A DNA stretch of 64,000 bases. Source: a virus. Below the pieces are notes generated by a model. That model ran no database searches, had not been told where the DNA came from, and was given only the letters and a program-made list of their open reading frames with translations. The stretch lies in the IMG/VR virus record IMGVR_UViG_3300042905_004373, positions 1 to 64,000 of that record; one strand, 5' to 3'. The position numbers and the translations under genes were made by a program. Below are positions 3,720 through 62,771 of this stretch, piece by piece (position 1 is the stretch's first letter; each line of letters opens with the position of its first letter).

Positions 3720-3883
3720 CACAATTGTATCGTATTGAAGAATTGTTTACAAATGGTTGGGAGTTGATTGACGAGTCAGCAACCAAACTTACAAAGGAAC
3801 AATGTAATCAAAAACTTCAACATTATCTTACTCAGGGATATAATCCCAATTGTCTTCGTGCAGTATTAGATTTGGAAGAATGA
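3716..3883 (+). CDS. hypothetical protein (55 aa)
   Basis: ATGA overlap; MTQLYRIEELFTNGWELIDE... Confidence 0.35.
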   Translation: MTQLYRIEELFTNGWELIDESATKLTKEQCNQKLQHYLTQGYNPNCLRAVLDLEE

Positions 3884-4116
3884 GTTATGTTCCAAAAGTC
3901 AATGATTATGTGACATGGAAAAGAAATGTTGAAGGTTGGGTTTATTTCAAGGATTCTGACTACATTACTATTGAGGTTTTGGTAAAACCAAAAAATCAAA
4001 TTAATTATAAGGCATCGTCAATTCATGCAAATGATCGTCTTTTGGTTTTATGTTATCAGAAACAGTGGAATGAACTTAACTACTTGAAGTCAAGAACATC
4101 AATTTATGAAAAATAA
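3880..4116 (+). CDS. hypothetical protein (78 aa)
   Basis: ATGA-type overlap; MSYVPKVNDYVTWKRNVEGW... Confidence 0.45.
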   Translation: MSYVPKVNDYVTWKRNVEGWVYFKDSDYITIEVLVKPKNQINYKASSIHANDRLLVLCYQKQWNELNYLKSRTSIYEK

Positions 4117-4195
4117 AATATCATGAAAATATTTGTCGCTGGTGCTATCTTTGGTGTAATTCTGGCATTTGTATTGCACTGATAGACCACTTTTC

Positions 4196-4245
4196 AAACT
4201 GGCACAGTCTGATGGCATTTGCCTCATAAGATACCTTATAATACA
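4196..4245 (+). promoter_or_regulatory. Class-A cassette (AAACTGGCACAG ... CCTTATAAT)
   Basis: TGGCACA box and TATAAT upstream of ATG 4269 with AAGGAGG SD. Confidence 0.45.
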
Positions 4246-4268
4246 TTTGACAATAAGGAGGAATTCTC

Positions 4269-4538
4269 ATGCAAACCCCAATGATTGAAATTAATGAACA
4301 TAACTATTGTGATCAGAAACCAGTCACAATAGAGTTTTCATTTGAAGAACATAGTCTTTTCAATGATGTTCTGAATCATTTTCTGGACATTTATGATTTT
4401 GTTGGATATGGTGAGATCTATGATCTTTCCGATGATTCTGAAATCAAAAAGAAATATAACATGGTTATGAATATGAAAGAACGATCTCATCAACTCTGGG
4501 CACATCGTTTTGACAATCCACCATACAATAATGATTGA
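4269..4538 (+). CDS. hypothetical protein
   Basis: 89 aa; strong SD AAGGAGG. Confidence 0.6.
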   Translation: MQTPMIEINEHNYCDQKPVTIEFSFEEHSLFNDVLNHFLDIYDFVGYGEIYDLSDDSEIKKKYNMVMNMKERSHQLWAHRFDNPPYNND

Positions 4539-4565
4539 GGGTGAGATCTAAATACAAATAAAAAC

Positions 4566-4649
4566 ATGAAGACCTTCTCACAGTTCATGTCCGAAAGTGG
4601 TGGATCTCCATATCAACCATATAAACCAGTGCCACAACCAGAACCTTAA
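4566..4649 (+). CDS. 27-aa ORF with capsid-targeting-sequence-like N-terminus MKTFSQFMSE (possible remnant)
   Basis: Same MK(T/S)F.QF motif as 5189/6873/7694/8507/56902 genes. Confidence 0.3.
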   Translation: MKTFSQFMSESGGSPYQPYKPVPQPEP

Positions 4650-4654
4650 GTCTT

Positions 4655-5161
4655 ATGAACCTTAAAATTACTGCATACAAAACTGAATATGGCATTTGGG
4701 CATTCGATCATGAGCATCAAAATACAGTTGCCGAAGCACTCTGCAATGGAACTGAATTGGTTTTAGATGAGTATTTCCGAATTGGAATGAATCGTGATCC
4801 AAAACTTCAAGATGAGATTGAAGTTTATGTGAGTACTGAAGATTTTGATGATTCTGATACGGTTCTTTCATTTCAATCAACAAATGATCAAGGAACCACA
4901 TATCTTGATATGGTTCTCTTTGAAAAAGTATGGTTGTGCCCCTGGTTGCAATCTTATTTTGGATACAAACCAACCGAATTATATGTTAAACTGACACCAG
5001 TAAATCCTGGTCTCAAGAATTTTAATAAAAACTATGCGAATCCATTTGCCAAATATGTAAAAAAGAATGAGGATGAACTTGATAAAATGTTGGAAGGAAT
5101 TAGTGAAGAAGAATTGACTGATTTTATCAATTCAAGTTATAGTAATGATGGTAAGTTATAA
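4655..5161 (+). CDS. hypothetical protein
   Basis: 168 aa. Confidence 0.6.
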   Translation: MNLKITAYKTEYGIWAFDHEHQNTVAEALCNGTELVLDEYFRIGMNRDPKLQDEIEVYVSTEDFDDSDTVLSFQSTNDQGTTYLDMVLFEKVWLCPWLQSYFGYKPTELYVKLTPVNPGLKNFNKNYANPFAKYVKKNEDELDKMLEGISEEELTDFINSSYSNDGKL

Positions 5162-5188
5162 ATAACCCTAGAGGTCAAATCAAAATCA

Positions 5189-6217
5189 ATGAAGACTTTT
5201 AGAGAGTTTTTAGAAATATCAGAAAAATATTACGAACCAGATGAACCCTTACCATCAGGAAAGACTCCTTATGGTAAGGCGACTTCTTCGTATTATAGAC
5301 AAAAAGGTGAATTTAAGAGAGATCCAACTAGAACATCGGATCAAGCTTTTAGAATTGCAAGACAAGGTAGTAGAAGAAGAAATGAAGTCAGTCGAGGTGC
5401 TAACAATCCTGACTTTGATGCAAGACCTGATAAAACTGGTAAATATGACATAGATGCCGACGCAGGTTATAGTATGAGAGTGCGTGATACTAAGAATGAT
5501 CTTGAGATGAGAATTCGTCAAAAGGATCAGATTGCTCCATCTCAAGGTAATAAACCAGTTTATGATGTTGAGTGGTATAATCAGTCGGGAAAAAGAAGAC
5601 ATAATCCTGGTGAAGCAAGATCTGTTGCAAGAAATGTTGCAGATATGTGGAAGAATCAAGTTGCTCCACGTATTCCAAGTAACTCAATTTTAACAAACTT
5701 CCCCATCAGTAACGATACTAGTGAGCGTAATACAAGATCAAAATTATACTCTAAGATTGCTGGATTTGGCAAACCGGGAATGCAAGGAAGGCAATATGCC
5801 AATGTTGGTCGCAATCCATCACCAAGACAAGCGGCAAAGGGTGCTCAGCGCATTACACCACTTTCTGGAAATCTTGATCCAAAATGGGCAAGTAGGGATG
5901 AATTGGTTGATATGGACGCTAAAAGAATGCATTTACCTAGAGACAGTCGAATTAAATTGGATAAAGAATTTGGTAAACCAAGACAAATTGCACCAGCAAA
6001 ACCATCTAGACCTTCACAGACTAAAGCATTGAATGCATTAAAGTCAACTCCAAAAACCAAGGCACCATCTTTACCAAAACCTCCTACAGTAAAACCATCT
6101 GCAATTTCTAAAGTACCAAGAATTAAATTAAGAGGATCTGGAAAGGCAGCACTTGCTGGTGCAGCATTAACTGGTGCAGCTGCCTTAATTAACTCATTGC
6201 GATCCAAAAAAAAATAA
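5189..6217 (+). CDS. internal-protein-like highly basic protein with CTS-like N-terminus (MKTFREFLEISE)
   Basis: N-terminus matches T4 IP capsid-targeting sequence MKTYQEFIAE; I-S-E site fits gp21 protease L/I-x-E rule; extremely R/K/S/P-rich 342 aa. Confidence 0.7.
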   Translation: MKTFREFLEISEKYYEPDEPLPSGKTPYGKATSSYYRQKGEFKRDPTRTSDQAFRIARQGSRRRNEVSRGANNPDFDARPDKTGKYDIDADAGYSMRVRDTKNDLEMRIRQKDQIAPSQGNKPVYDVEWYNQSGKRRHNPGEARSVARNVADMWKNQVAPRIPSNSILTNFPISNDTSERNTRSKLYSKIAGFGKPGMQGRQYANVGRNPSPRQAAKGAQRITPLSGNLDPKWASRDELVDMDAKRMHLPRDSRIKLDKEFGKPRQIAPAKPSRPSQTKALNALKSTPKTKAPSLPKPPTVKPSAISKVPRIKLRGSGKAALAGAALTGAAALINSLRSKKK

Positions 6218-6250
6218 ATAAATAATATAAAGGCAAATTTAAGTAGACCT

Positions 6251-6868
6251 ATGAATAATCAAAATATCGCACATGATTTAAAAGAGTTATATTATACTCA
6301 AGTATATTCTGAAGGTGCATTTGGTAGTGCTTCTATGCCTGCTGCATCATCCGATGCTGCAAAAGGAGCTGCTGACAAACACAGAAAAGCAGCAGAAACG
6401 GCAACAAGTGCTAGTGATAGAAGGCGTCACAGAGATTCTGCAGCTCGTTATGAAGTAACTGCAAGACGCATGAGTATGACTGCAGATCACTATGAGTTTT
6501 TAACTGGTTATTTAATTGCAGAGAATTTTGCATCAGATTTAGATTCTGCTTATGCAATTATTGAAAATATGAGTGATGAATGGATGCAGTCAATCTTTGA
6601 GCAAAATTTAAATGAAGTTCGTGGACTTGGTAAGGTTCTATTCAGGGGTCTTTCAAATGCTCGTAATCGTGGTATGAGAGTAGATCCAGAAACTAAATCT
6701 TTCTATAAGGAAACACAATTAGATGATACGATTGAAACATTAAGGACTAGAATTCATCAGTCTAATCGAGGTGTGAAGGGTGCTCCTATTCCAGCAAATA
6801 ACCCAACTATTCGCAATTTAGAAGCAAGAAGAGATAAAATTAATCAAGTTAGAAATACTGCAAAATAA
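6251..6868 (+). CDS. hypothetical protein embedded in internal-protein array
   Basis: 205 aa, Ala/Arg-rich N-terminal half; no CTS motif. Confidence 0.55.
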   Translation: MNNQNIAHDLKELYYTQVYSEGAFGSASMPAASSDAAKGAADKHRKAAETATSASDRRRHRDSAARYEVTARRMSMTADHYEFLTGYLIAENFASDLDSAYAIIENMSDEWMQSIFEQNLNEVRGLGKVLFRGLSNARNRGMRVDPETKSFYKETQLDDTIETLRTRIHQSNRGVKGAPIPANNPTIRNLEARRDKINQVRNTAK

Positions 6869-6872
6869 TAAA

Positions 6873-7697
6873 GTGAAAACATTTCAAGAGTTTCTTGAGG
6901 AAAGTGCCCTTGCAAGATTGGCACTTCGGGGTATAAGATCTGCATCAAGAGTTGCAAGAACTGCTGATGGTGGAAGAAGAGTTACATCAGCAGCAAGAGC
7001 AACAAGAAATGTAAGATCAAGAGTAGTAGAACCAAAAGGAATGCCCGAAACAGGTACAACAAGATACTTTGATCGTAAATTAGGTAATAGCGATCTTGCA
7101 GCATTTAAAAAAGCAAATTTTAGAACAAGTCGATCTGACGCTAGAGATTATGACAGAACCAGACCACGGTCTTACAGTTATAAATCAACACCATCAGGAG
7201 AACCCTCTTTTTATACAACAATTGTTTCAAAATATCCGAATCAAGCGGCATATGCACAGAGACAATTGCCAGATAAAAAGTCTTATGGTTTCAATGCAAG
7301 AACACAACAAAGTGGATTTAAGGTAACTCCATCAAGAGAAAGAGCATTCTTTGCAAGTCAGTTAAGAAAACAACTGGGAGGAACAAGAACTCCTAAACAA
7401 GTTGCAGATATTGAAATTGGAACAAAATCAGATTATTATAGAAAAAATGATCCGACAGATCTGATCGGAAGAGGTAAAGAATTTGTTCAAACACTAAAAG
7501 ATGTTCCACAAAGACTTGCAACATCGAATGTGAAACCAGGTGATAAAGTCACTGCTCATCCAGCAGCAGTGATGCCAGGTGAAACAAATAAAGTAATGGG
7601 AAGAAAAAAAAGAGCAGATCTTTATAAGAGGATTGCAGGAAATAGGATGACAAAAATGAATCCTGTGACTCAGGCACTTGTAGGTACAATGCAATGA
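6873..7697 (+). CDS. internal-protein-like basic protein, paralog B (MKTFQEFLEES, GTG start)
   Basis: CTS-like N-terminus; shares 52-nt identical stretch and C-terminal similarity with 7694..8476. Confidence 0.7.
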   Translation: MKTFQEFLEESALARLALRGIRSASRVARTADGGRRVTSAARATRNVRSRVVEPKGMPETGTTRYFDRKLGNSDLAAFKKANFRTSRSDARDYDRTRPRSYSYKSTPSGEPSFYTTIVSKYPNQAAYAQRQLPDKKSYGFNARTQQSGFKVTPSRERAFFASQLRKQLGGTRTPKQVADIEIGTKSDYYRKNDPTDLIGRGKEFVQTLKDVPQRLATSNVKPGDKVTAHPAAVMPGETNKVMGRKKRADLYKRIAGNRMTKMNPVTQALVGTMQ

Positions 7698-8476
7698 AGA
7701 CATTTCAAGAGTTTAACGAAAGTGCTGCTATTGCAAGAGGTGCCTTAAAATTACTTAGATCAGCATCCAGAGCAGGTAAAGTCGCAAGAACCGCTGATGG
7801 TGGAAGAAGAGTTACATCAGCAGCAAGAGCAACAAGAAATGTAAAATCAAAAGCAGTTCCTCCTCGTGGTCCAGGTGAAAATACATGGGATAGACTAGAT
7901 GCTAGAAGAAGTATTTCAGATAAAGTAGTACTAAAAAAGGCAGGATTCAAGAGACGTGATCCTAACGAACAACCTAAAGAAACTGAAGCATGGGCATCAC
8001 CTCATCATTCCACTATGGTCCGCACTTATAAAAATCAAAGTGATTACGTTATAGATCAAGTACCACATAAAAATCTTGCATCTGGAAGAGCAACAAGAAA
8101 AGTAAGATCAACTGCATCTATAGTAAGACACGCAAAAGCATTAAGAAAGCAGTTAGGTGGTGATCGTACATCAAAACCAGTACATGATGTTGCAATTCTA
8201 AGTGATAGATCTTATGCTAAAAATGACCCAGAAGATTTGATCTCAAGAGGTAGAAGTTTCAGGAAAGAAGTTGGTGCCGTACCTAGTGCATTATGGAAAG
8301 CAGGTGCAAACCCAGGTGATAAAGTTACGTCAGAACCTTCAGGAATTATGAGTGGTGAAGACATAATAAAAGGAAAAGAAAAAAGAGACAAGATCTATAC
8401 GAAGGTATTGAAAGCAAAGATGAATCCAAAGACTGGTAAGACGATGGGTACATATAGAGATATGGATAATAACTAA
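7694..8476 (+). CDS. internal-protein-like basic protein, paralog C (MKTFQEFNES)
   Basis: ATGA overlap with paralog B; clear paralogy (ARTADGGRRVTSAARATRNV...; NDP.DLI.RG..F). Confidence 0.7.
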   Translation: MKTFQEFNESAAIARGALKLLRSASRAGKVARTADGGRRVTSAARATRNVKSKAVPPRGPGENTWDRLDARRSISDKVVLKKAGFKRRDPNEQPKETEAWASPHHSTMVRTYKNQSDYVIDQVPHKNLASGRATRKVRSTASIVRHAKALRKQLGGDRTSKPVHDVAILSDRSYAKNDPEDLISRGRSFRKEVGAVPSALWKAGANPGDKVTSEPSGIMSGEDIIKGKEKRDKIYTKVLKAKMNPKTGKTMGTYRDMDNN

Positions 8477-8506
8477 AACCTAAATGTTCTTTATTCCCTA
8501 AAATAA

Positions 8507-8632
8507 ATGAAAAACTTTCAGCAATTTCAAGAAAGTGCTGCTATTGCAAGAGGTGCCTTAAAATTACTTAGATCAGCATCCAGAGCAGGTAAAGTCGCAA
8601 GAACTGCTGATGGTGGAGATGTCAAGAAGTAA
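8507..8632 (+). pseudogene. truncated 41-aa copy of internal-protein paralog C (MKNFQQFQESAAIARGALKLLRSASRAGKVARTADGG...)
   Basis: ~100 nt near-identical to 7713..7810, then cut off by class-A cassette at 8641. Confidence 0.5.
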
Positions 8633-8640
8633 GTAGGACA

Positions 8641-8695
8641 CCTGAACAACTGGCACACAGGGCACTTCACAGGTGCTCTTTCTTGTCTTATAATA
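8641..8695 (+). promoter_or_regulatory. Class-A cassette (CCTGAACAACTGGCACACAGGGCAC ... TTTCTTGTCTTATAAT)
   Basis: Consensus copy. Confidence 0.5.
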
Positions 8696-8717
8696 CTCTC
8701 ATACGCAAAGGACTCAA

Positions 8718-9449
8718 ATGTTCCAATTCGCAGAAGTCGGTGGTGCAGTCCGAGACAAGTTTCTTGGTGTAGATTCCAAGGATGTTGATTTCGTTGCAAT
8801 CCCGATAAATCCAAAGATGTTCGCAAATGCCGATGAGGCATTTGCTACCTTAGTGAATGTTTTGAAAGTTGATGGATTTGAGGTTTTTCTAGAAACTCCT
8901 GAGTTCTTCACTGTTCGGGCACAAGTTCCAACGTGGCATCCTGTGAGGAAAAGAACTACTGTTGCTGACTTTGTTCTGGCACGGAAAGATGGTCCGAGTA
9001 GTGATGGTCGTCGTCCTGATTTTGTTCTTCCCGGAACCCTGATGGATGACCTGCAACGACGGGATTTTACCGTGAATGCGATGGCAATTCTGGATGGGGA
9101 ACTGGTGGATCCTTTCGGTGGTCGTGAAGACCTTGAGAATAATCTTCTTCGGTTTGTGGGTAATCCTACTGACCGAATTGCAGAAGATGGTCTGAGGGTT
9201 ATGAGGGCACTGCGGTTTCACATTACCAAAGGGTTTAATATTGAAGGACAAACTTGGGATGCAGTCAATAGCGATTTTGCTGCTGAAATGCTGAACAAGG
9301 TTTCGGTTGAACGTATCCGTGAGGAACTTGAAAAAATGTTTCTTGCAAATACCGTTGCTACTATGGAGACCCTCAGTGATGTGAGGCGTAAAATGAAAAA
9401 TGCCATCTTCCGTGATGGTCTGCGTCTGATGCCCACTCTGAAAAAGTAA
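8718..9449 (+). CDS. tRNA nucleotidyltransferase / poly(A) polymerase family head-domain protein (CCA-adding-enzyme-like, 243 aa)
   Basis: GGAVRD (GGxVRD) and RRDFTVNA (RRDFTxNA) class-II nucleotidyltransferase motifs; DPFGG..DL; RALRF. Confidence 0.75.
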   Translation: MFQFAEVGGAVRDKFLGVDSKDVDFVAIPINPKMFANADEAFATLVNVLKVDGFEVFLETPEFFTVRAQVPTWHPVRKRTTVADFVLARKDGPSSDGRRPDFVLPGTLMDDLQRRDFTVNAMAILDGELVDPFGGREDLENNLLRFVGNPTDRIAEDGLRVMRALRFHITKGFNIEGQTWDAVNSDFAAEMLNKVSVERIREELEKMFLANTVATMETLSDVRRKMKNAIFRDGLRLMPTLKK

Positions 9450-9455
9450 ATCACT

Positions 9456-9563
9456 ATGCTTGCTCTTATTTGCCTTTCTCCATTCGTAGTAATTTTTCTC
9501 CTAGTATTACTTTTCGATGATGATATTGAAACTTTAGATAAAAACCACCACCTCAAAAAGTAA
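9456..9563 (+). CDS. 35-aa hydrophobic peptide ending DDDIETLDKNHHLKK
   Basis: MLALICLSPFVVIFLLVLL...; its 3' 60 bp duplicated at 9855..9904. Confidence 0.3.
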   Translation: MLALICLSPFVVIFLLVLLFDDDIETLDKNHHLKK

Positions 9564-9569
9564 ATCATT

Positions 9570-9797
9570 ATGAACGACCTGATTGAAGCACTCCAAATAT
9601 TTTCCAAGTACGGAAATCCAGATTATCCAACTCATTGTGAACACGAAGAACTAACTATCTCTGCAGAAATTGACCCAGATGATGTGCCTTATGATGATAG
9701 GATTAGGTTGGAGAAGTTGGGGTTTTTTGTAAGTTATATTGATGGTGATGATTCTGGAGTTAGTATTTTTAAATCCTTTAGGTTTGGTAGTTGCTGA
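9570..9797 (+). CDS. hypothetical protein
   Basis: 75 aa. Confidence 0.5.
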   Translation: MNDLIEALQIFSKYGNPDYPTHCEHEELTISAEIDPDDVPYDDRIRLEKLGFFVSYIDGDDSGVSIFKSFRFGSC

Positions 9798-9805
9798 TTA
9801 TTAAA

Positions 9806-9904
9806 ATGAATGAACCTCAAAGAACATCTAAAACAACGGCACCTAAACCTTTCGTTGATGATGATATTGAAACTTTAGATAAGAACCACCACCTCAAAAA
9901 GTAA
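9806..9904 (+). CDS. 32-aa ORF MNEPQRTSKTTAPKPFVDDDIETLDKNHHLKK (mosaic of two local repeats)
   Basis: N-part duplicated at 10105..10145, C-part duplicated at 9513..9563. Confidence 0.25.
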   Translation: MNEPQRTSKTTAPKPFVDDDIETLDKNHHLKK

Positions 9905-9910
9905 ATCATT

Positions 9911-10150
9911 ATGAAACTACATTACGAAATCAAACACCCTAAAGAGTTGGAAACTATGAAAGAAAATGGTGATATTCAAGATTATTCTCTTTATGATAAT
10001 GATTTTGGGGAGACTCTTGAAATTACATTTCCTTCAGGTAAAACTCTAGTAGTTCATAACTGGGGTGCAGAATACAACTGTTATCTTGATTTTACACAAA
10101 CTCCAGATGAACCTCAAAGAACATCTAAAACAACGGCACCTAAACCTTGA
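9911..10150 (+). CDS. hypothetical protein
   Basis: 79 aa; C-terminus ...DEPQRTSKTTAPKP repeats 9806 ORF N-terminus. Confidence 0.5.
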   Translation: MKLHYEIKHPKELETMKENGDIQDYSLYDNDFGETLEITFPSGKTLVVHNWGAEYNCYLDFTQTPDEPQRTSKTTAPKP

Positions 10151-10220
10151 ACTACATCGTCCATTTTTAGATGAAGAACTCAACATCGCCACTTTTTATT
10201 GCTGGAACCCATCAGGACAA

Positions 10221-10637
10221 ATGGTAGGATACCAACAATACAACCCAAATGGTGATAAGAAAATCTTTAATTCTAAATTGGAGGGCAAATACTATACCTA
10301 CAGAAACAAGAATCACCAAACAGTAGTTGTATGGGGCACCGAAAGTCTCTATCAGTCAGATGGTGTTGTCTATCTGACTGAAGGAATCTTTGATGCTGCC
10401 CGTATGACAAATATGGGGCAATCTGCTCTTGCTGCTATGGCAAATAATCCTCCAAAGGATTATAGAAACTGGTTGCAAATGCTAAATCGTCCTGTGGTTG
10501 CTGTTTGTGATAATGATGATGCAGGAAGAAAACTTGCCAAGTTCGGGCATTATGTAGAAGTAGTTCCTGATGGTAAAGATTTGGGTGATGCTCCTGATGA
10601 TTATGTCAGGTATCTACTCACCAAGTATGCCACCTGA
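10221..10637 (+). CDS. stand-alone TOPRIM-domain protein (DnaG-type)
   Basis: LTEGIFDA (EGxxD) and CDNDDAGRK (DxDxAG) TOPRIM motifs; first in-frame ATG after 9911 ORF stop (track ORF 10065 opens earlier, overlapping). Confidence 0.6.
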   Translation: MVGYQQYNPNGDKKIFNSKLEGKYYTYRNKNHQTVVVWGTESLYQSDGVVYLTEGIFDAARMTNMGQSALAAMANNPPKDYRNWLQMLNRPVVAVCDNDDAGRKLAKFGHYVEVVPDGKDLGDAPDDYVRYLLTKYAT

Positions 10638-10687
10638 CGAACTGGCACACTGAGGCACTCCAGACTCCTCTGGATGCCCTATAATAG
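10633..10687 (+). promoter_or_regulatory. Class-A cassette (CCTGACGAACTGGCACACTGAGGCAC ... 10-bp bulged hairpin ... CCCTATAAT)
   Basis: Consensus copy; near-identical duplicate at 11501..11560. Confidence 0.5.
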
Positions 10688-10715
10688 TCTCATACACACA
10701 AAGGAGAGTTTCCAA

Positions 10716-11198
10716 ATGGGTCTTGATATGTATCTCTATGCCGAAAAGAGATTTGGTTTTTGTAGTTGGGATAAAGAAGGAAAGGATAATGAAAAGTTTG
10801 ATAAACTTGTAGAGTTTGCAGAACTGAGTGATGTTGTGGATAAACAAATTGGGTCTGTTTCCGCATATGTCAAAGTTGAAGTTGGGTATTGGCGAAAGGT
10901 AAATGCCATTCACGAATACTTTGTGGGTAACTGTGCTAATGGTGTAGATGAATGTCAAGAGATTGAAGTTTATCGAGAAACTTTGGTTGCTCTGAAAGAT
11001 ATTTGTGGTCAACTGAGTTTGACTAAAGATGCAGAACAAGCAAAAGAACTTCTTTGCCCTAAAGGTGGTTTCTTCTTCGGAAGCACTGAGATTAATGAAT
11101 ACTACTTTGATAATATTGAATACACTTATGAACTTCTGACTAAGATTCTGGAAAATACACCAGAAGATTATCACTTCATCTATCGAGCATCCTGGTAG
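10716..11198 (+). CDS. hypothetical protein
   Basis: 160 aa from ATG with AAAGGAGAG SD after cassette. Confidence 0.6.
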   Translation: MGLDMYLYAEKRFGFCSWDKEGKDNEKFDKLVEFAELSDVVDKQIGSVSAYVKVEVGYWRKVNAIHEYFVGNCANGVDECQEIEVYRETLVALKDICGQLSLTKDAEQAKELLCPKGGFFFGSTEINEYYFDNIEYTYELLTKILENTPEDYHFIYRASW

Positions 11199-11204
11199 AC
11201 ACTT

Positions 11205-11255
11205 CCCAAACCGGCACAAGACCCCTCCACAGGGGCACCAGATGCCTTATAATAG
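11205..11255 (+). promoter_or_regulatory. Class-A cassette variant (AAACCGGCACAAG ... GATGCCTTATAAT)
   Basis: CCGGCACA instead of CTGGCACA. Confidence 0.4.
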
Positions 11256-11283
11256 TCTCATACACACAAAGGAGGTTCTCCAA

Positions 11284-11508
11284 ATGTCTTTTACTGCTGA
11301 AGGAACTATTGAAATTGATTTGGCAGAGTTCTTCACTTGGATTTACCAAAACTACGCACCTGTAAATGGTGTTGAGTATCAGTATGGTGTTCCTCGTGTG
11401 AATAAGAGTAATCAAACACTTGAGATTGATTTTGCGATGGCAACTGATTGTAATCCAAAGGATTGGATTGAACAACCTGATGCAGTCAATCAGTGGAAGG
11501 ACACTTGA
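11284..11508 (+). CDS. hypothetical protein (74 aa)
   Basis: ATG 8 nt after AAAGGAGG. Confidence 0.55.
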   Translation: MSFTAEGTIEIDLAEFFTWIYQNYAPVNGVEYQYGVPRVNKSNQTLEIDFAMATDCNPKDWIEQPDAVNQWKDT

Positions 11509-11560
11509 CGAACTGGCACACTGAGGCACTCCAGACTCCTCTGGATGCCCTATAATAGTC
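11501..11560 (+). promoter_or_regulatory. Class-A cassette (near-identical copy of 10633..10687)
   Basis: CTTGACGAACTGGCACACTGAGGCACTCCAGACTCCTCTGGATGCCCTATAAT. Confidence 0.5.
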
Positions 11561-11581
11561 TCATACACACAGAAACCTCCT

Positions 11582-11794
11582 ATGAAAATCAGCACTCAAA
11601 TTACTATCCAAGATCATAATGGTTTTTGGTATCAGGTAGAAGATATTCATACTGATGTGGGTTGTCCTGGTTGCACTATTTCCTATTGGGAAGAAGATAG
11701 TGAGCGAGGTGATAAACGACATTCATTCATTTGTATGAATAAGGAAGAAGCACTTGCTATTGCTGATGCCATCTACAAACTCTTTAAGAACTGA
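11582..11794 (+). CDS. hypothetical protein
   Basis: 70 aa. Confidence 0.55.
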   Translation: MKISTQITIQDHNGFWYQVEDIHTDVGCPGCTISYWEEDSERGDKRHSFICMNKEEALAIADAIYKLFKN

Positions 11795-11967
11795 TGGACT
11801 ACGAAACTTACATAGACATCAAGCAGTATTCTACTGATTGTTATTTTTCTTACACCCTCAGGGTTACAGATGTAATGAATATGGATTACTACTATAGTGG
11901 TACTGCTAAAACTCTTGATGATGTTATGGATTGTATCAAACTTCACCTCAAACAACACCAGAACTGA
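11794..11967 (+). CDS. hypothetical protein (57 aa)
   Basis: TGATGG overlap. Confidence 0.35.
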   Translation: MDYETYIDIKQYSTDCYFSYTLRVTDVMNMDYYYSGTAKTLDDVMDCIKLHLKQHQN

Positions 11968-11968
11968 A

Positions 11969-12154
11969 ATGACCATCAAATCTGTGATTGTAACACGCTC
12001 TATTGAGTATTCTCCCGAAGTATATCTTGAGTGTTGTGAAGAAACTGGTGAAACTCCTACACAAGAAGGATTCATTGAATTCATCCAAGATTGGATTTAT
12101 GATGACTTTAGGTGTGGTAACACCACACAAGAAATCACCGAACTCAACTACTGA
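11969..12154 (+). CDS. hypothetical Cys-containing protein (61 aa)
   Basis: in frame with track ORF 11897. Confidence 0.4.
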   Translation: MTIKSVIVTRSIEYSPEVYLECCEETGETPTQEGFIEFIQDWIYDDFRCGNTTQEITELNY

Positions 12155-12156
12155 AA

Positions 12157-12381
12157 ATGACTATTTTTTCCCGAACTCTTGATAGAGGAAATTACAAGAG
12201 TGTTGCTCAGTGTGAAGAACTACTATTTGTTTATGGTGAATATCGTGAGATGGCAAACGATATTTCAAATGATTGTGGCAGAACTATCAGTAGTGCTTCG
12301 TTGATTATGCTTCTTCAACAAATGACTGACCGCATTTGTGACCTTGAACGTGAAATCGCAAAACTCAACGGAGAAAATTGA
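12157..12381 (+). CDS. hypothetical protein
   Basis: 74 aa. Confidence 0.5.
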   Translation: MTIFSRTLDRGNYKSVAQCEELLFVYGEYREMANDISNDCGRTISSASLIMLLQQMTDRICDLEREIAKLNGEN

Positions 12382-12382
12382 A

Positions 12383-12598
12383 ATGACTGAAAAAGACACC
12401 TATGCATACTGCGAACACCTTATTCAAAAAGAAATTGATGAGGTATTTGTGACTGTTAGTAGTTGGAGCAGAGAATGTGCCGACCATAATGAAGAGTTTA
12501 TTTCTTTCAAACAAAGAAAAAGTGAAGAACTCAAAAACCTCTACAAACACTTGGAGAACATTCAAAAACTGAAAACCTCTTATCTTACTGGACGATAA
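12383..12598 (+). CDS. hypothetical protein (71 aa)
   Basis: in frame with track ORF 12338. Confidence 0.45.
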   Translation: MTEKDTYAYCEHLIQKEIDEVFVTVSSWSRECADHNEEFISFKQRKSEELKNLYKHLENIQKLKTSYLTGR

Positions 12599-12774
12599 TG
12601 ACTAACCAAATTACCAAAGAACAACTAATCCGAGTTAAAATTCTTCCTCAACTTGAAAGTGTTTCTGATTTTTTGCTTGATTGTCACGACAATTCCACAG
12701 CAAAGCATTTTGGTAGGAAACTGGATAAAATTACTGAAGAACTCATCACTATTTTGAACGACGAGGACACCTGA
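12598..12774 (+). CDS. hypothetical protein (58 aa) ending ...DEDT*
   Basis: ATAATG overlap; stop codon lies inside cassette GACACCTGAACAACTGGCAC. Confidence 0.4.
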   Translation: MTNQITKEQLIRVKILPQLESVSDFLLDCHDNSTAKHFGRKLDKITEELITILNDEDT

Positions 12775-12824
12775 ACAACTGGCACACAGGGCACTTCACA
12801 GGGGAACCAGATGCCTTATAATTG
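12766..12824 (+). promoter_or_regulatory. Class-A cassette
   Basis: GACACCTGAACAACTGGCACACAGGGCAC...GATGCCTTATAAT. Confidence 0.5.
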
Positions 12825-12845
12825 ATTCATAAGCAACCCAACCAA

Positions 12846-13430
12846 ATGAACATCAACGGATACGAAATCAAACCTGGTGCTAACCTTGTGGGTGCTTACC
12901 TTGGGTGTGCTTACCTTGTGGGTGCTAACCTTAGCGGTGCTCACCTTGTGAGTGCTAACCTTGTGAGTGCTAACCTTAGGGGTACTAACCTTAGTGGTGC
13001 CGACCTTGAGGGTGCCGACCTTAGTTGTGCCGCCCTTAGGGGTGCCGACCTTTATGGTGCCATCCTTAGGGGTGCCTACCTTAGGGATGCCAACCTTAGT
13101 TGTGCCGCCCTTAGGGGTGCTGACCTTAGGGGTGCTGACCTTAGGGGTGCTTACCTTGAGGGTGCCATCCTTAGGGGTGCTGACCTTTATCGTGCCGACC
13201 TTAGGGGTGCCGACCTTAGGGGTGCCTACCTTTATCGTGCCGACCTTAGGTATGCCAACCTTGAGGGTGCCAACCTTGAGGGTGCAAATGTAACAGAAAC
13301 CATTCTTGATGGGAAAGAAGAACCTTCTCAAGATACCACTTCACTTTCTGAAAAAGTTAAAGAACTTGAGGAAGAAAACAAGAAACTTAAGGATACACTT
13401 AAGGCAATTCTGGCACTTCTGGACACCTGA
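12846..13430 (+). CDS. pentapeptide-repeat protein (28 tandem A[D/N]LxG repeats) with C-terminal coiled coil
   Basis: GANLV GAYLG ... GADLR GAYLE ...; 15-bp DNA periodicity; C-terminal KVKELEEENKKLKDTLKAILALL; start at ATG 12846 rather than track TTG 12822. Confidence 0.8.
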   Translation: MNINGYEIKPGANLVGAYLGCAYLVGANLSGAHLVSANLVSANLRGTNLSGADLEGADLSCAALRGADLYGAILRGAYLRDANLSCAALRGADLRGADLRGAYLEGAILRGADLYRADLRGADLRGAYLYRADLRYANLEGANLEGANVTETILDGKEEPSQDTTSLSEKVKELEEENKKLKDTLKAILALLDT

Positions 13431-31012: not shown

Positions 31013-34000
31013 ATGGTAAATTCAAAATTTGATTCTAGAGTTAAAATTCAACAAATTATTGATAGTCAGATTCCAGAATTTATTTTAGATGAAAATCCAA
31101 AAGCAGCGGAATTTCTAAAGCAATATTATATTTCACAAGAATATCAAGGTGGCCCAATTGATATTGTTGAAAATTTAGATCAATATTTAAAATTAGATAA
31201 TTTACTTCCAGAAGTTATTGTAGGATTTACGAGTTTAACATCTGGTATTTCTTCATCTTCTACAAATATTGTCGTTAATTCAACCAAAGGATTCCCTTCG
31301 AAATATGGGTTGTTGAAAATAGATGATGAAATTATTACTTATACTGGAATAACTACGAATACCTTTACTGGTTGCATTCGTGGATTTAGTGGAATTACAA
31401 ATTATCATAAGAATTTGCAATATGAAGAATTGGTTTTTAGCGAATCAGTATCAGAACCTCATAATTTTGAATCAAAGGTAGAAAATCTTAGTTCCTTATT
31501 TTTAAAAGAATTTTATAAAAAAATTAAATTTACTTTAACTCCAGGATTAGAAGAATTAAATTTCAATGAAAATTTAAATGTAGGCAATTTTATAAAAGAA
31601 TCAAAGAGTTTGTATGAAACAAAAGGAACTCCAGAATCTTTTAGAATATTATTTAATGTTCTTTTTGGAGAAACTCCAAAAATAATTAACCTAGAACAAT
31701 TTTTAATTAAGTCATCCGATTCAGATTATATAAGAAGAAATGTAGCAGTAATTAAAGCAATTTCCGGAGACCCAACTAAATTAACTGGACAAACAATTAA
31801 AAAATCTACCGATGAGGGAACCAGTGCTTCAGTTTCTGAAGTAGAAACAATCACAAGAAAAAGTAAGACATACTATAAACTTAACTTTTTTGTTGGATAT
31901 GATGATAGTTATCCAAATATTACTGGCACGTTTTCAGTCACTCCAAATACAAAAGTAATTGATAATGTAATATTATCTTCTACTAAAACTGGAGTAGTTA
32001 CAGTAGATTCTACAATTGGATTTGCGGAATCTGGAAGTTTTTTTTATGAGGACTATGAGGTATTTTATTCCAGAAAAACAATCAACCAATTTTTAGGTTG
32101 TTATATTAATTCTAATGAATCAGTCAATGTACTCAAAAAATCTTTATTGATTTCAAATGAAACTTATTATGGATATGAAAATGGCGATTTAGAAAAAAAA
32201 GTAGAATTTATAATCACTGGAGTTATATCTGATATTTTTGTAAGTGATAATTCTTACAATTTTATTGAAGGAGATGAAATATATCCTCAAAATTTAGGTG
32301 AGATTATTTCGCAAGGAAAAAGTAATAAGCAAATTTTTGCAAATAGTTGGATTTACAATACAAGTTCAAGATATCAAGTAGATAATTTTTCTGGATTTAC
32401 AATTACTATAAAATCAAAAATAGATTCTGTAAGTATTTCAGTTGGTGACACAATTGAAATACTTGATAGAAATACTGAAAATGTAATTTCTACTGCAATT
32501 ATTACTGGTATTGATCTTAACGCCAATCAAATTACAATAAATCAGAATATTAATTTATCTGGAAATTATGATATTAGAAGAATACTTAAAAAGGCAAATT
32601 CGCCAATAGTTCCAATCGAATTTGGAAATGATAAGATTACATCCGATATTCAAAATGTATACAATGAAAATGATGCATATATGTATGTTGCATCTAATTC
32701 TTTACCATCCTATCAAATACAAAAAAATGTATTTGAATATACTATAACCAAACTGAGTGGAAAGAATGACGATGATGAGTATAGTATCATTGAGTTTAAT
32801 GATGTAATTTCATTCATAACCGGAGATAAGGTATTATACTACACAGATGAAAATTCCACAATTGTAGGTTTGGTGGAAGGTCCTTATTTTGTGGAGGTTT
32901 TATCGGACAAAAAATCAATTAAACTTCATTTAAGTTCCTCTACAATTGGTAGTAGTGATTTTGTAACATTTGGACAATTTTCGAATGGTTCAATCGTAGG
33001 AAATCATAAGGTTATACTTTATTCTCAAAAATCTAAAACTATTTCTCCACAAAAATTACTAAAAAAGTTTCCATTAGATAGAAAAACTTCAGATAATAAA
33101 ATTTACGAAACAATTCCAGGATCAATTGGAATGTTAAAAAATGGAGTTGAAATATACAATTATAAAACAAATGATAAAATTTATTATGGACCTTTAGAAA
33201 ATGTAGACGTTTTAAGTGGTGGAAATAATTATGATGTAATAAATCCACCAGTCTTAACAATATCTACAGGGTCTGCTGTTCTTTATCCAGTGATAACTGG
33301 TTCCGTTAAAAAAATATTTGTAGATCCTCAAGAATTTGATATTGATGTAAATATATCAATACAATTAAGTGGTGGAAATGGATCAAATTCTTCATTTAAA
33401 CCAATTTTTGAAAAGTATGCGAGAGAAATTGAATTTGATGCTAGATCTATTTTAAATGGTGGTGGAATAGATTCTGTAGATGAAGTTATAGCATTCAAAG
33501 AAAATCACAATCTAATTAATGGACAACCACTTGTTTATAATAACAACAACTTTAATTCTATTGGAATAGGAACTTTTAAGGGTTCTAATTTGGATCAAGG
33601 TAAAACATTAGTAAAAAATGCAATTTATTATACAGAAGTAATTAATGATAAAACAATTCGACTATATCAAAATTTTTCAGACTATTCATCAGGAATCAAT
33701 ACTGTAGGATTCACTACTATTGGAAATTCTGGAACTCATAAGTTCAAAACTGAAGTAAAAAATAGATTAGTTGATATACAAGTTATTTCCGAAGGAAGTG
33801 GTTATTCAAATAGAAAAATTAGAGTATCTCCATCTGGAATTTCAACTTTTGATCATACTATAAATTTTAAAAATCATGGGTTTTCTGATGGAGAAGTAGT
33901 CTCATATGAATATCAAACTTCCAATATTTCTGGATTAACAACATCAAATTCATATAAAGTTCTAAAACTAAATTCTGATAATTTTAGGATTTGTGATATT

Positions 34001-55610: not shown

Positions 55611-56900
55611 GTGAATAAGTTAAAGTCCCATAAAACAGTTGAACAAATTGCCAAGAAACATCGCCTTGAAGTTTCTTTTGTGAAGAATCAACTTAAAATG
55701 GGAATTCCTATTGAGCATGAACACACAAAAGATAAGGATCTTGCTACTGACATTGCTCTTCAACATCTTGATGAAATTCCCGATTACTATACACGACTAA
55801 AAAAAATGGAATCCTCAGCAAAGAAATCGCATAAAAAATATAAGGATGTTACTGAAGGAAAAAAAATGAAAGGTGAAGATCCTTGTTGGAAGGGATATCA
55901 GATGGTTGGTAAAAAGAAAAAAAATGGTAAAGAGGTTCCAAATTGCGTTCCAGTGAAGGAAGAAAATGGAATGATGAGATATTGCCCCAAATGTCAAAAA
56001 GATGAGACTCGTTCAGAGTGTAAGTATGGTCCAAAATTCTGGGATATGTATTCTTTACCAAAAACTTTGGGTAAAGATTATCATGCAAATTCGCCTCATC
56101 CAGGAAACTTTCCAGAATCTTATGATCATGAGCATTCGATGGCAAGATCAGAACTCTCAACTATTGCATCTGCAGTAAAAAGACTTAAGAAAAAAATGAA
56201 AGGTGAAGGAAATATAGAAGCATGGGTTCAATCAAAGATTACTAAAGCAGCAGATTATCTTGATACTGCAGCGGATTATGTTGATAGTGGTGAAATGAAA
56301 GAGCAGGTTGCAGGTACTGATTCTCCAGCAGATAACCCAAATATTGAAAGATTTAGTACAGCAATTAAAGCAATTGGAAAAAGAAAACTACCAGATTCTC
56401 AAAAAATAGGTGCTCTTAAACAAGCTGCACAAATATATCGTGGTATGCGTGAAGAAATTAGTTTTGAAATCGGTTCTGGTCATAAACAGGTACAAAAACA
56501 GGCAAAAATTAGAAATCTTGCAGAGAGAACTACTAACCAAAATGAAAAATCTGCTGCACAAAGAAAACTTTCTGGACCTTCATTACCTCTTGCAGATTCT
56601 TACGAATACTCAAATTGGAGAGTAGAATTTGGATTATCTGAAGATTGGCAAAAAGTAAATCGTAAAGATAAGACCGATGGATTAAGTCAAAAAGCAGTTA
56701 ATGCTTATCGTAAAGAAAATCCAGGTTCAAAACTTCAAACTGCAGTAACTGAAAAGAATCCAAAAGGAAAAAGGGCAGGGCGTCGTAAAAGATTCTGTAG
56801 TCGTATGTCTGGAATGAAGGACAAACTCACTTCTGCAAAAACTGCAAGAAATCCGGATTCAGATATCAATAAAACACTACGTCGTTGGAACTGTAACTAA
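55611..56900 (+). CDS. Lys-rich hypothetical protein with Cys clusters, inserted between terminase genes (GTG start)
   Basis: 429 aa; CWKGY...NCVP...CPKCQKDETRSEC; very basic C-terminus. Confidence 0.6.
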   Translation: MNKLKSHKTVEQIAKKHRLEVSFVKNQLKMGIPIEHEHTKDKDLATDIALQHLDEIPDYYTRLKKMESSAKKSHKKYKDVTEGKKMKGEDPCWKGYQMVGKKKKNGKEVPNCVPVKEENGMMRYCPKCQKDETRSECKYGPKFWDMYSLPKTLGKDYHANSPHPGNFPESYDHEHSMARSELSTIASAVKRLKKKMKGEGNIEAWVQSKITKAADYLDTAADYVDSGEMKEQVAGTDSPADNPNIERFSTAIKAIGKRKLPDSQKIGALKQAAQIYRGMREEISFEIGSGHKQVQKQAKIRNLAERTTNQNEKSAAQRKLSGPSLPLADSYEYSNWRVEFGLSEDWQKVNRKDKTDGLSQKAVNAYRKENPGSKLQTAVTEKNPKGKRAGRRKRFCSRMSGMKDKLTSAKTARNPDSDINKTLRRWNCN

Positions 56901-56901: not shown

Positions 56902-57210
56902 ATGAAATCATTTCAACAGTTTATTTCAGAAAGCATCAATATTGCCGGAGATTTTAACGGCAATCTTTATATGAATTCTTCCGAACCAGAAACGGCAAAC
57001 GAATCTTTTCTTGCTGATGTAGTTTGGAAAGGAAGATTATATCGCATGGAAGTTGAAGGTAAAATGATGAACAAGAATGAACTTGCTGAACAACTTCAAA
57101 GAGAATATCCTGGGGCAATTGTTCATAACATTTACCCAGTAACAGAAAATTCATTAACAGTTAAAAACGCACAAAGATACAGACCAGAAAGATTATCATG
57201 GAGTGATTGA
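56902..57210 (+). CDS. small protein with CTS-like N-terminus MKSFQQFISES (internal-protein-like)
   Basis: N-terminal motif shared with 5189/6873/7694/8507 genes; I-S-E cleavage-like site. Confidence 0.55.
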   Translation: MKSFQQFISESINIAGDFNGNLYMNSSEPETANESFLADVVWKGRLYRMEVEGKMMNKNELAEQLQREYPGAIVHNIYPVTENSLTVKNAQRYRPERLSWSD

Positions 57211-60521: not shown

Positions 60522-60537
60522 TTAAAGGGTAGGAAAT

Positions 60538-60545
60538 TATAAATA
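60538..60545 (+). promoter_or_regulatory. T4-type late promoter TATAAATA
   Basis: exact TATAAATA 36 nt upstream of gp18 ATG. Confidence 0.5.
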
Positions 60546-60580
60546 CTTTTAGATAATTCTGGATAGTACGGAGAATAAAG

Positions 60581-62752: not shown

Positions 62753-62771
62753 TTTAGAGGTTTAAAAAACT

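Follow-up and report, generated by a model that had tools for sequence, protein, structure and literature searches.

A probable T4-type capsid-targeting leader on basic proteins of a freshwater cyanomyovirus marks candidate head-internal proteins

Genes of the leader locus

The window, the whole 64,000-nt stretch of DNA analysed here, comes from a freshwater T4-like cyanomyovirus, a Kyanoviridae-like relative of Synechococcus phage S-SRM01. Several of its genes begin with closely similar N-terminal peptides, which we call leaders. These genes and the features around them are as follows:

4566..4649, + strand: 27-aa leader ORF (MKTFSQFMSESGGSPYQPYKPVPQPEP; MKTFSQFMSE...), a truncated counterpart of basic leader peptides of 52-55 aa that relatives encode at this position
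4655..5161, + strand: acidic DUF6717 protein (Pfam DUF6717, E 3.3e-8), 168 aa, pI 4.4, net charge -15
5157..5164, + strand: T4-type late-promoter motif TATAAATA, 32 nt 5' of the gene A ATG
5189..6217, + strand: gene A, 342 aa, leader MKTFREFLEISE, pI 10.45, net charge +36
6213..6224, + strand: two overlapping late-promoter motifs (NATAAATA at 6213 and 6217), 34-38 nt 5' of gene X, at the head of the X-B-C(-D) block
6251..6868, + strand: gene X, 205 aa, without a leader, pI 9.1
6873..7697, + strand: gene B, 274 aa, GTG start, (M)KTFQEFLEES..., pI 10.7, net charge +31
7694..8476, + strand: gene C, 260 aa, MKTFQEFNES..., pI 10.5, net charge +28; paralog of B
8507..8632, + strand: gene D, 41 aa, MKNFQQFQES..., remnant of a third, roughly 340-aa subfamily
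8659..8679, + strand: terminator-like hairpin with a T-run (consensus match only), closing the block
56902..57210, + strand: sixth leader gene, 102 aa, MKSFQQFISE followed by S (predicted cut site); acidic, pI 5.2; phrog_1742

The five leader-bearing ORFs of the first-pass annotation (4566, 5189, 6873, 7694 and 8507) all exist as it described them; the sixth, at 56902-57210, had been missed. The genes at 5189, 6873 and 7694 are not strictly consecutive, as had been stated, because the leaderless gene X lies between the first and the second. The start of gene C overlaps the stop of gene B (ATGA). Gene X had no family match in Pfam, PHROGs or NCBIfam, and its central domain recurs close to leader genes in other contigs.

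The description of the locus as a tandem array of paralogs holds for B, C and D and has to be relaxed for the rest. B and C are 42.5% identical (E 1e-56), and D matches C at 92% identity over 37 aa. Gene A represents a separate family, at best a remote relative, tied to B/C solely by a distant hhalign profile match (probability 71%, E 3.6e-5), and gene X interrupts the series. Gene D is the truncated copy it had been taken for: an internal deletion joins its N-terminal 37 aa, comprising the leader and a basic module, to the C-terminal GGDVKK of the roughly 340-aa subfamily. The products of A, B and C are indeed hyper-basic (pI 10.45-10.71, net charge +28 to +36). From its N-terminus, A consists of the leader, an ISE site at residues 10-12, a conserved mature start KYYEPDEPLPSGKTP, a weakly GNAT-like folded core, a linker rich in Pro and Lys and a hydrophobic C-terminus rich in Gly and Ala; B consists of the leader, an LEE site at residues 8-10, a conserved basic module (ALARLAL...RTADGGRRVTSAAR) and a folded alpha/beta core.

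The ORFs syntenic with 4566 encode 53 aa in S-SRM01, 52 aa in contig L065 and 55 aa in contig L125. The DUF6717 gene is a constant neighbour of leader genes, in S-SRM01, in L125 (two copies) and at eight IMG/VR loci. The gene at 56902 sits between the small and large terminase genes, in the head/packaging module, and its family (phrog_1742) is conserved at this interval in 135 cyanomyovirus records. Gene content at the locus differs among close relatives: S-SRM01 lacks A, the 340-aa type is a remnant here, and the gene order differs in L125. S-SRM01 is the only cultured carrier of these families.

The array could also be read as mainly decaying duplication debris of a hyperplastic genome region, with little current function: both D (41 aa) and 4566 (27 aa) are plainly truncated, and repeated junction cassettes lie close by, at 9.4-10.1 kb. 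We consider this extremely unlikely, since A, B and C are full length and the index of the collection lists the exact gene A protein in 52 blocks, with neighbour genes equal in length in the contigs examined. The A, B and C families also comprise 54 and at least 120 homologous clusters with conserved cores, and the A profile has 94 representatives at 50% identity.

The leader, its protease sites and its promoters

In the six-frame translation of the window, the pattern [MVL]K[TNS][FY].[EQ]F occurs six times, each time at the start of an ORF on the + strand; in mononucleotide shuffles of the window its mean count was 0.085 and its maximum 1. The leader codons of the window genes differ synonymously, and it is therefore the peptide that is conserved. 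The leader matches the N-terminus of T4 IPII and IPIII (MKTYQEFIAE, read from NC_000866), including residues 4, 7, 8 and 10, as can be seen for gene B ((M)KTFQEFLEE), and MKTFQEFIAEA is the N-terminus of many environmental leader proteins in IMG/VR. Mutagenesis in T4 identified positions 4 and 7 as the targeting determinants and positions 8 and 10 as governing processing (PMC9026906). All six ORFs (MK[TNS]F.[EQ]F) have the features of the T4 Ip-class leader, which spans about ten residues, of which residue 4 is aromatic and residue 7 is Phe. Neither F4 nor F7 varies in the B/C family; all A-family members have F7, and at least 90% have F4.

The T4 Ip class also involves a gp21 prohead protease and a gp22 scaffolding core. 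Both genes lie outside the 64,000-nt window and were read from contig L136, which is 99.75% identical to the window over 4.5 kb by sequence comparison, and from S-SRM01. Just past the point that corresponds to the window end, L136 encodes Portal_T4, Peptidase_S77 (gp21), T4_CASP (gp22) and Gp23, and S-SRM01 likewise encodes this set (Peptidase_S77 at 7.9e-37, T4_CASP at 3e-80).

An L/I-x-E site, after which the gp21 protease would cut, ends the leader of A (ISE, residues 10-12), B (LEE, 8-10) and the 56902 protein (ISE, 8-10), and 4566 has MSE. C (FNES) and D (FQES) have no L/I-x-E at the leader end, so that the earlier statement that I-S-E and L-E-E sites are present in these copies applies to 5189 and 6873 and fails for 7694 and 8507 (two of four). 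Targeting is possible without processing in T4 (PMC9026906). Among family members, [LIMV]xE is found at residues 6-16 in 110 of 112 A proteins, directly before a conserved (K/R)YYEPD, and hydrophobic-x-E stands at the leader end in 37 of 54 B/C proteins, the other 17 being without it.

Inside the mature parts such sites are strongly depleted. A, B and C contain no internal [LI]xE, and the depletion in their families is 8-10 fold, with 12 sites against 93.1 +/- 10.1 expected in the A family and 4 against 39.3 +/- 6.6 in the B/C family. Among the matches listed, leader ORFs of a 31-family set have 31 against 80.9 +/- 8.8, and the leaderless control ORFs of the window are not depleted (45 against 35.3 +/- 5.4); related sequences enter this test, which inflates its z-scores. 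Gene X is rich in [LI]xE (4 against 1.3 expected).

A search for the leader in other phage genomes, suggested as a check when the locus was first described, found the exact leader at the head of at least 31 unrelated and almost all basic families, often in tandem. An exact-leader DNA scan of IMG/VR returned more than 120 loci and at least 123 ORFs, nearly always with the leader at the ORF start, and the 31 or more body families are unrelated to one another among the matches listed. Of 129 leaders in the same listed matches, 100 carry I, M, V or L at position 8 and 77 carry E at position 10. When the leader pattern was relaxed slightly, a pI above 9 was found for 149 of the 155 leader ORFs listed, and tandem arrays of three to six leader genes recur. 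The leader was seen in freshwater and marine T4-like cyanophages and in at least one phage of a heterotroph (Paraglaciecola). The largest exact-leader family among the matches listed is Pfam S-AdoMet_lyase, and one environmental leader family is weakly PARP/ART-like. Some family members are fusions: P0167 joins an A body to a B/C body, and P0165, P0174 and L056 retain, where their modules meet, internal junctions of the form EF(I/L)E(L/I)(A/S)E(K/R)YY, a pattern that polyproteins cleaved there should show.

The motif NATAAATA, named as the cyanomyovirus late promoter (PMC2984593), has 11 matches on the + strand of the window and none on the - strand. Only three fall in the non-structural region at 1-26 kb, each of them 32-38 nt ahead of A or X; the remaining eight lie in the structural module. 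The family-A gene of L125 has the same motif upstream. Across the IMG/VR loci listed, the motif precedes 45 of 152 leader ORFs, at 17-31 nt from their starts, and 132 of 1689 other ORFs (odds ratio 5, p 1.5e-13). These motif matches suggest that leader genes are expressed late, at the time of head assembly.

Leader-like N-termini also occur on proteins of purified virions. Mass spectrometry of CsCl-purified S-CREM2 virions, as tabulated in Table 3 of PMC10665884, detected seven enzyme-like or hypothetical proteins of this kind: gp6 (SAM lyase, MKDFDSFLEE; a homolog of the S-AdoMet_lyase leader family), gp12 (..RFASFMAEA), gp13 (MKDLHSFLTE), gp14 (kinase-like, (M)KRFDAFLTEE), gp15 (MNFSEFNES), gp136 (MQTFSMFFSE) and gp154 (cytidylyltransferase, MKNFSSFLTE). 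Their leaders are variants (MKDFDSF...) that differ from the exact motif at positions 3, 5 and 6, and the proteins (ORF6, 12, 13, 14, 15, 136 and 154) belong to other families than A and B/C; ORF15 shares the EFNES variant with gene C. The term-searchable text of that paper makes no mention of the motif at the N-terminus, nor does it connect the proteins with the T4 signal. In our literature search, "cyanophage" and "capsid targeting sequence" occurred together only in one T4 review; internal proteins went unmentioned in the term-searchable text of cyanophage reviews, one of which, in the part consulted, records the core proteins gp67 and gp68 as absent.

The shared N-terminus could instead be a remnant of common descent, or a generic motif for translation initiation or stability, carried by nucleic-acid-binding proteins that act in the cytoplasm of the infected cell and are never packaged. 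B, C and D are true paralogs and must have inherited part of their N-terminal identity, and the acidic DUF6717 partner could hint at a cytoplasmic complex. This is nevertheless very unlikely given the unrelated bodies behind the leader and its synonymous codon variation, the agreement of its functional positions with the experimentally defined T4 signal, the confinement of protease-site depletion to leader proteins, the enrichment of late promoters upstream and the leader-like proteins listed for S-CREM2 virions. Together with the presence of gp21 and gp22, these observations give good support to the original proposal that the N-terminus is a T4-type capsid-targeting sequence, a signal that D and 4566 (degraded copies) and the small 56902 protein carry as well as A, B and C. 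From such a sequence at the N-terminus, packaged and protease-processed internal proteins are predicted.

The mature proteins and their possible roles

As the first-pass annotation had noted, nothing beyond the targeting peptide resembles the T4 internal proteins: the mature parts have no sequence similarity to any Ip. The profile and structure comparison it proposed for them gave a predicted folded core and no profile match among PDB sequences. AF2 predicts a conserved folded core in both A and B, with low confidence at B residues 1-61 and A residues 293-342. The core is weakly GNAT-like (Z below 8 throughout), which is the sole structural lead to the cargo. At the sequence level the proteins fall outside the GNAT acyl-CoA N-acyltransferases (Pfam Acetyltransf), which include the anti-CRISPR AcrVA5: Pfam GNAT gave no hit for A, B or C, nor in a scan of 38 remote and multi-domain members of the families, and of the CoA-binding motif Q/R-x-x-G-x-G/A, A has a partial NPGxA while B and C have NDPxDL and no G-x-G/A loop. 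Searches of Pfam, PHROGs and NCBIfam likewise related A, B and C to none of the known anti-defence proteins.

The proteins might be packaged in the same way and yet be structural, as DNA counter-ion or condensing proteins or as components of the prohead core, with no anti-defence function. A DNA-packing role fits their extreme basicity equally well as an anti-defence role does, and the high pI of nearly all listed leader proteins suggests that basicity itself is selected; the low-confidence segments of the AF2 models and the failure to match any anti-defence family in the three databases point the same way. We regard this alternative as possible but doubtful. The variable content of the locus in S-SRM01, L125 and this phage is more what one expects of accessory genes than of essential structural ones, a conserved folded core is present in each protein, and other leader cargoes are enzymes, such as SAM lyase. 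Moreover, the basic T4 proteins Ip1, Ip2 and Ip3 are all specific inhibitors of GmrSD enzymes (PMC12373910), which attack glucosyl-hmC DNA, a target that need not be relevant here.

A model for the leader proteins and its implications

On the evidence of their sequences, A, B and C are probably head-internal proteins of a T4-like cyanophage, made late, targeted by the leader, processed by gp21 and injected with the DNA. T4-type promoters would drive late transcription of the leader genes, and the leader, 10-12 residues with MKTFxEF and I/L-x-E, would bind the gp22 core of the assembling prohead, as in T4. The gp21-type protease would then remove it by cutting after the Glu of I/L-x-E, and C and D, which lack the site, would be packaged uncut. 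The mature basic proteins would stay with the packaged DNA, be ejected with it and act before any phage gene is expressed. Because each mature part has a folded, weakly GNAT-like core, the cargo would less likely be a simple counter-ion filler than an effector that acts on a host or nucleic-acid target by binding or modifying it.

This is not a new kind of system. The mechanism is known; what is new is the cargo, in a phage group in which this mechanism is not known to have been described. That T-even coliphages carry variable sets of non-homologous internal proteins with only the leader in common is established (PMC9026906, PMC3012670, PMC12373910). The genes described here resemble T4 IPI, IPII and IPIII and the T-even Ip loci in their leader of about ten residues, the hydrophobic-x-Glu at positions 8-10, the basic non-homologous cargoes, the clustered and variable gene sets, and the gp21 protease, gp22 scaffold and gp23 capsid of the phage. 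They differ in host phage (Tequatrovirus against a freshwater cyanomyovirus), in having Phe rather than Tyr at position 4, in cargo size (260-342 aa against 95-194 aa), and in their weakly GNAT-like core and conserved second basic module. T4 Alt, a packaged ADP-ribosyltransferase, and other capsid-delivered enzymes likewise enter the head, are trimmed by gp21 and reach the cell by injection, to act before phage transcription; A, B and C have no ART similarity, and any enzymatic activity is hypothesized from a weak fold match. The P1 Dar and SPN3US/phiKZ ejection proteins are also packaged in the head and delivered with the DNA, with processing by a prohead protease and, for some, an anti-restriction function, but they come from other phage lineages and use unrelated targeting signals and proteases.

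A more ambitious reading, which we think unlikely as a whole, is that MKTFxEF with (I/L)xE is a capsid-loading code of aquatic T4-like phages and that A, B and C are new injected effectors with a GNAT-like acyltransferase fold, which act within the first seconds of infection by sequestering or modifying a host defence or nucleic-acid target. If the code were real, one could read directly from sequence which proteins some of the most abundant lake and ocean viruses inject. The present data extend a near-identical leader, with the same functional positions, far beyond the T-even coliphages to dozens of unrelated cargo families, among them SAM lyase (a type of anti-restriction enzyme), an ART-like protein and the two families of the window. 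If confirmed, the 10-residue motif combined with protease-site depletion would be a cheap, sequence-only predictor of the proteins that cyanophages deliver together with their DNA. It would also account for the enzyme-like proteins in cyanophage virion proteomes, and would point to a pool of candidate counter-defence proteins in the arms race between phages and cyanobacteria.

Leader-bearing genes and their cargo families

The first-pass annotation had described five ORFs sharing an MKTFxEF-type N-terminus, likened to the T4 capsid-targeting sequence, and all five are present with the starts it gave. Searching the six-frame translation for [MVL]K[TNS][FY].[EQ]F returned six matches, every one at the start of a plus-strand ORF (shuffle mean 0.085), the sixth being a leader copy that had been missed. 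The genes of interest are:

4566-4649, plus strand: 27-aa leader ORF
5189-6217, plus strand: gene A, with leader
6251-6868, plus strand: gene X, 205 aa, without leader, separating A from B
6873-7697, plus strand: gene B, with leader
7694-8476, plus strand: gene C, with leader
8507-8632, plus strand: gene D, with leader
56902-57210, plus strand: the sixth copy, a 102-aa acidic protein beginning MKSFQQFISE followed by S, between terminase genes and conserved in 135 cyanomyovirus records

The leader codons vary synonymously from copy to copy, so selection acts on the leader peptide, and we reject DNA-level gene conversion as the cause of leader conservation on the same ground. A, B and C are highly basic (pI 10.45-10.71, net charge +28 to +36). 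They had been read with D as a tandem array of paralogs; this holds for B and C (42.5% identity, E 1e-56), with D the remnant of a third subfamily, but A belongs to another family and the leaderless X lies between A and B. D joins the first 37 residues of that roughly 340-aa subfamily to its last residues (GGDVKK) and is what an internal deletion left behind; Synechococcus phage S-SRM01 and many contigs have the intact form. S-SRM01, a cultured phage, encodes a 276-aa B-type protein (QPX48132), a 338-aa protein (QPX48133) and a 53-aa leader peptide.

The homologues of A form a family distinct from and larger than that of B and C (the B/C family). It comprises at least 120 clusters at 90% identity, and a search of 1.84 billion proteins gave 94 representatives at 50%. 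The only links between the two families are a natural fusion protein, P0167, bearing both bodies, and a remote match between the profiles of their cores (hhalign probability 71%, E 3.6e-5). Beyond the leader, the B/C family has a second conserved basic module at residues 11-45 (ALARLAL...RTADGGRRVTSAAR); identity between pairs of members averages 0.82 in the leader, 0.70 in this module, 0.39 over residues 46-165 and 0.49 in the C-terminal core. Pfam, PHROGs and NCBIfam gave no family match for A, B, C or X, the A and B/C alignment profiles gave only noise against all PDB sequences (E > 0.2), and Foldseek against BFVD returned only the S-SRM01 ortholog. The cores bear a weak fold likeness to GNAT; among 38 remote and multi-domain A-core homologs from an HMMER search of the 1.84 billion proteins, no GNAT Pfam domain was found, and unrelated Pfam domains appeared in two giant false positives only.

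Other termini are also conserved. The A family ends (window 6040-6217) in a conserved PRKIAPAKPSRPS, a Gly/Ala-rich hydrophobic stretch (GGGxAALAGAAxxGAGAL; AF2 pLDDT < 50) and KKK, a tail that may be membrane-active or cleaved. Remote A-core members P0233, P0237, P0240-P0244, P0251 and P0261 share a different N-terminus, MRDLYEEIQEYY(L/I)LxE..., which may be a second leader type ending in L-x-E. The terminase genes flank a 429-aa protein of DUF5661/phrog_727 (55611-56900) that is without leader here and in S-SRM01, and its homologs in at least eight IMG/VR loci begin MKTFQEFILEASC... followed by a Cys-rich segment; this virion-module protein, conserved in other respects, has gained or lost the leader.

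Leader conservation and the protease-site signature

T4 internal proteins IPII and IPIII begin MKTYQEFIAE, and B begins (M)KTFQEFLEE. The first ten residues of T4 IPIII suffice for packaging, and in the T4 leader targeting is set by residues 4 and 7 and processing by residues 8 and 10 (PMC9026906). Both phenylalanines, F4 and F7, are invariant across the B/C family, and A-family members always have F7 and keep F4 in at least 90% of cases.

We scanned IMG/VR for DNA encoding exactly MKTFQEF and found at least 120 loci and at least 123 ORFs; among the ORFs listed, almost all start at the motif and, with their first 12 residues removed, they fall into at least 31 unrelated families. Of the 129 leader matches listed, 100 have I, M, V or L at position 8 and 77 have E at position 10, and many environmental leaders read MKTFQEFIAEA, 9/10 identical to T4. 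Under a slightly looser pattern, 149/155 leader ORFs have a pI above 9. Tandem leader arrays occur elsewhere, with six consecutive copies in one locus (L068), four in another (L107) and three in a third (L056). The search across related phages that the annotation had proposed found members in P-SSM2, P-TIM68, S-SM2 and S-CREM2, as well as in a Paraglaciecola phage.

If the proteins reside in a prohead with a protease cutting after L/I-x-E, internal sites should be counter-selected. Internal [LI]xE sites number 4 in the B/C family (39.3 +/- 6.6 expected), 12 in the A family (93.1 +/- 10.1 expected) and 31 in the 31-family environmental set (80.9 +/- 8.8 expected), versus 45 in the leaderless window ORFs used as a control (35.3 +/- 5.4 expected). 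The depletion z-scores are inflated because family members are related; the effect is nevertheless large in three sets. Cleavage sites had been reported in the copies themselves: one is kept by 110/112 A-family members, exactly ahead of a conserved (K/R)YYEPDEPLPSGKTP, but C has FNES instead. In natural fusion proteins, internal EF(I/L)E(L/I)(A/S)E(K/R)YY junctions persist where modules meet, the pattern that polyproteins cleaved there should show.

In many contigs, basic leader genes have as neighbours the X-type domain and an acidic DUF6717 protein (4655-5161 here, pI 4.4). X, in contrast to the leader proteins, is rich in [LI]xE sites (four versus 1.3 expected); it may act as a chaperone, or be a degraded protein of the core.

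Genome setting and late-promoter motifs

A T4-type morphogenesis module fills the right half of the window (gp25, gp6, a 3902-aa gp7-like giant, gp8, a 2434-aa giant, gp13, gp14, gp15, small terminase, large terminase, sheath and tube), the two giant ORFs of the baseplate module lying at 31013-42721 and 44372-51676. By megablast of window 4500-9500, no GenBank phage is closely related at DNA level; the closest cultured phage at protein level is S-SRM01 (Kyanoviridae; freshwater reservoir, Singapore), in which the same locus is syntenic. A metagenomic contig (L136) 99.75% identical to window 58821-63362 runs on into the T4 portal, a gp21-type prohead protease (Peptidase_S77), a gp22 scaffold (T4_CASP) and gp23, and the phage therefore has the machinery acted on by the T4 capsid-targeting sequence.

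Between portal and protease on that contig (6859-7026, just past the window end, same phage population) is a 55-aa acidic ORF (MEELIDLIATDESPSKVSEKIKELLYAK...DDE) in the position of T4 gp67, resembling gp67 of Aeromonas phage 25 as quoted in a paper supplement; gp67 and gp68 are absent from cyanophages according to a review. GC content shifts sharply, from 35-50% in the non-structural left (1-26000; peak 0.507 at 22-24 kb) to 27-31% in the baseplate/neck module (26000-56000). This raised the question of an assembly chimera, which is unlikely because these genes are found again on numerous independent contigs. The non-structural region encodes a pentapeptide-repeat protein (12822-13430, Pfam E 5e-48), of a class in which some members mimic DNA. 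Gene junctions in 9438-10148 carry direct repeats that are nearly identical (9516-9574 = 9857-9915, 59 nt, 98%; 9810-9851 = 10107-10148, 42 nt, 100%; three copies of a 21-nt unit). The repeats duplicate DDDIETLDKNHHLKK and EPQRTSKTTAPKP, both C-terminal peptides, on adjoining small ORFs; they look like mobile junction cassettes shuffling genes. A tRNA scan found none in the window.

NATAAATA, the late-promoter motif of cyanomyoviruses (PMC2984593), has 11 plus-strand copies in the window and no minus-strand copy:

5157, plus strand: 32 nt upstream of A, exact TATAAATA
6213 and 6217, plus strand: 34-38 nt upstream of X, first gene of X-B-C
27952, 28632, 30897, 42737, 44266, 52035, 54239 and 60538, plus strand: eight copies upstream of structural genes

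Apart from the first three, no copy falls within the non-structural 26 kb. For most of the 11, the next gene start is 27-48 nt downstream, as with the one ahead of a speD-like gene at 27980. Across the IMG/VR loci, the motif stands 17-31 nt upstream of 30% of leader ORFs versus 8% of other ORFs (p 1.5e-13). Scans for sigma-70 promoters and terminators gave counts not above shuffles.

Virion proteins of S-CREM2 and a candidate packaging route

The T4-like cyanophage S-CREM2 offers an experimental proxy, since mass spectrometry of its CsCl-purified virions detected several enzyme-like or hypothetical proteins, according to the proteome table of the paper on it (PMC10665884, Table 3).

Table. S-CREM2 virion proteins with leader-like N-termini (protein; annotation; N-terminus; detection)
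gp6; SAM lyase; MKDFDSFLEE; 19 peptides in virions
gp12; annotated Cas9-like; RFASFMAEA close to start; 28 peptides in virions
gp13; MKDLHSFLTE; found in virions
gp14; kinase-like; (M)KRFDAFLTEE; 21 peptides in virions
gp15; MNFSEFNES; found in virions
gp136; MQTFSMFFSE; found in virions
gp154; MKNFSSFLTE; found in virions

Four of the five annotated genes with M[KR]x[FYL]xxF are in the virion proteome, versus 52/221 genes overall, in a census covering the first 150 of 175 kb. The gp6 protein is homologous to the largest exact-leader family among the matches listed (Pfam S-AdoMet_lyase, 2.3e-19 and 1.2e-6). The genes for gp6, gp12, gp13, gp14 and gp15, all leader-like and all virion-detected, form a minus-strand cluster (S-CREM2 3837-13331, our locus L131) resembling an island dedicated to 'injected proteins' in a cyanophage that has been cultured. 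The paper on S-SRM01 contains no virion proteomics.

Taken from sequence and T4 precedent, the proposed route would begin with late transcription of the leader genes; the leader would dock onto the scaffolding core, gp21 would cleave after I/L-x-E, and the basic mature proteins would stay with the DNA and be co-ejected. Copies like C, with FNES, would be loaded uncut; T4 permits loading when processing is blocked (PMC9026906). The cargo may counteract defence, modify a host target or chiefly neutralise the charge of the DNA. That leader proteins are uniformly basic speaks for at least an association with DNA, and an accessory-effector role is favoured on three points: gene content varies among relatives, the cores are folded, and T4 Ip1, Ip2 and Ip3 were recently each found to be a specific GmrSD inhibitor (PMC12373910).

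Variable sets of non-homologous internal proteins with only the leader in common are established in T-even coliphages (PMC9026906, PMC3012670, PMC12373910), and the central idea of the first-pass annotation is therefore an application of a known kind. What is new is the A and B/C cargo families, together with evidence suggesting that cyanomyoviruses, and further T4-like phages of aquatic habitats, use this leader too. Combining 'cyanophage' with 'capsid targeting sequence' in the searchable non-subscription literature returned only a T4 review, and term searches found no mention of internal proteins in the searched text of two cyanophage genomics papers or of the N-terminal motif in that of the S-CREM2 paper. 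The finding would make the injected proteome of abundant aquatic phages predictable and open to direct testing.
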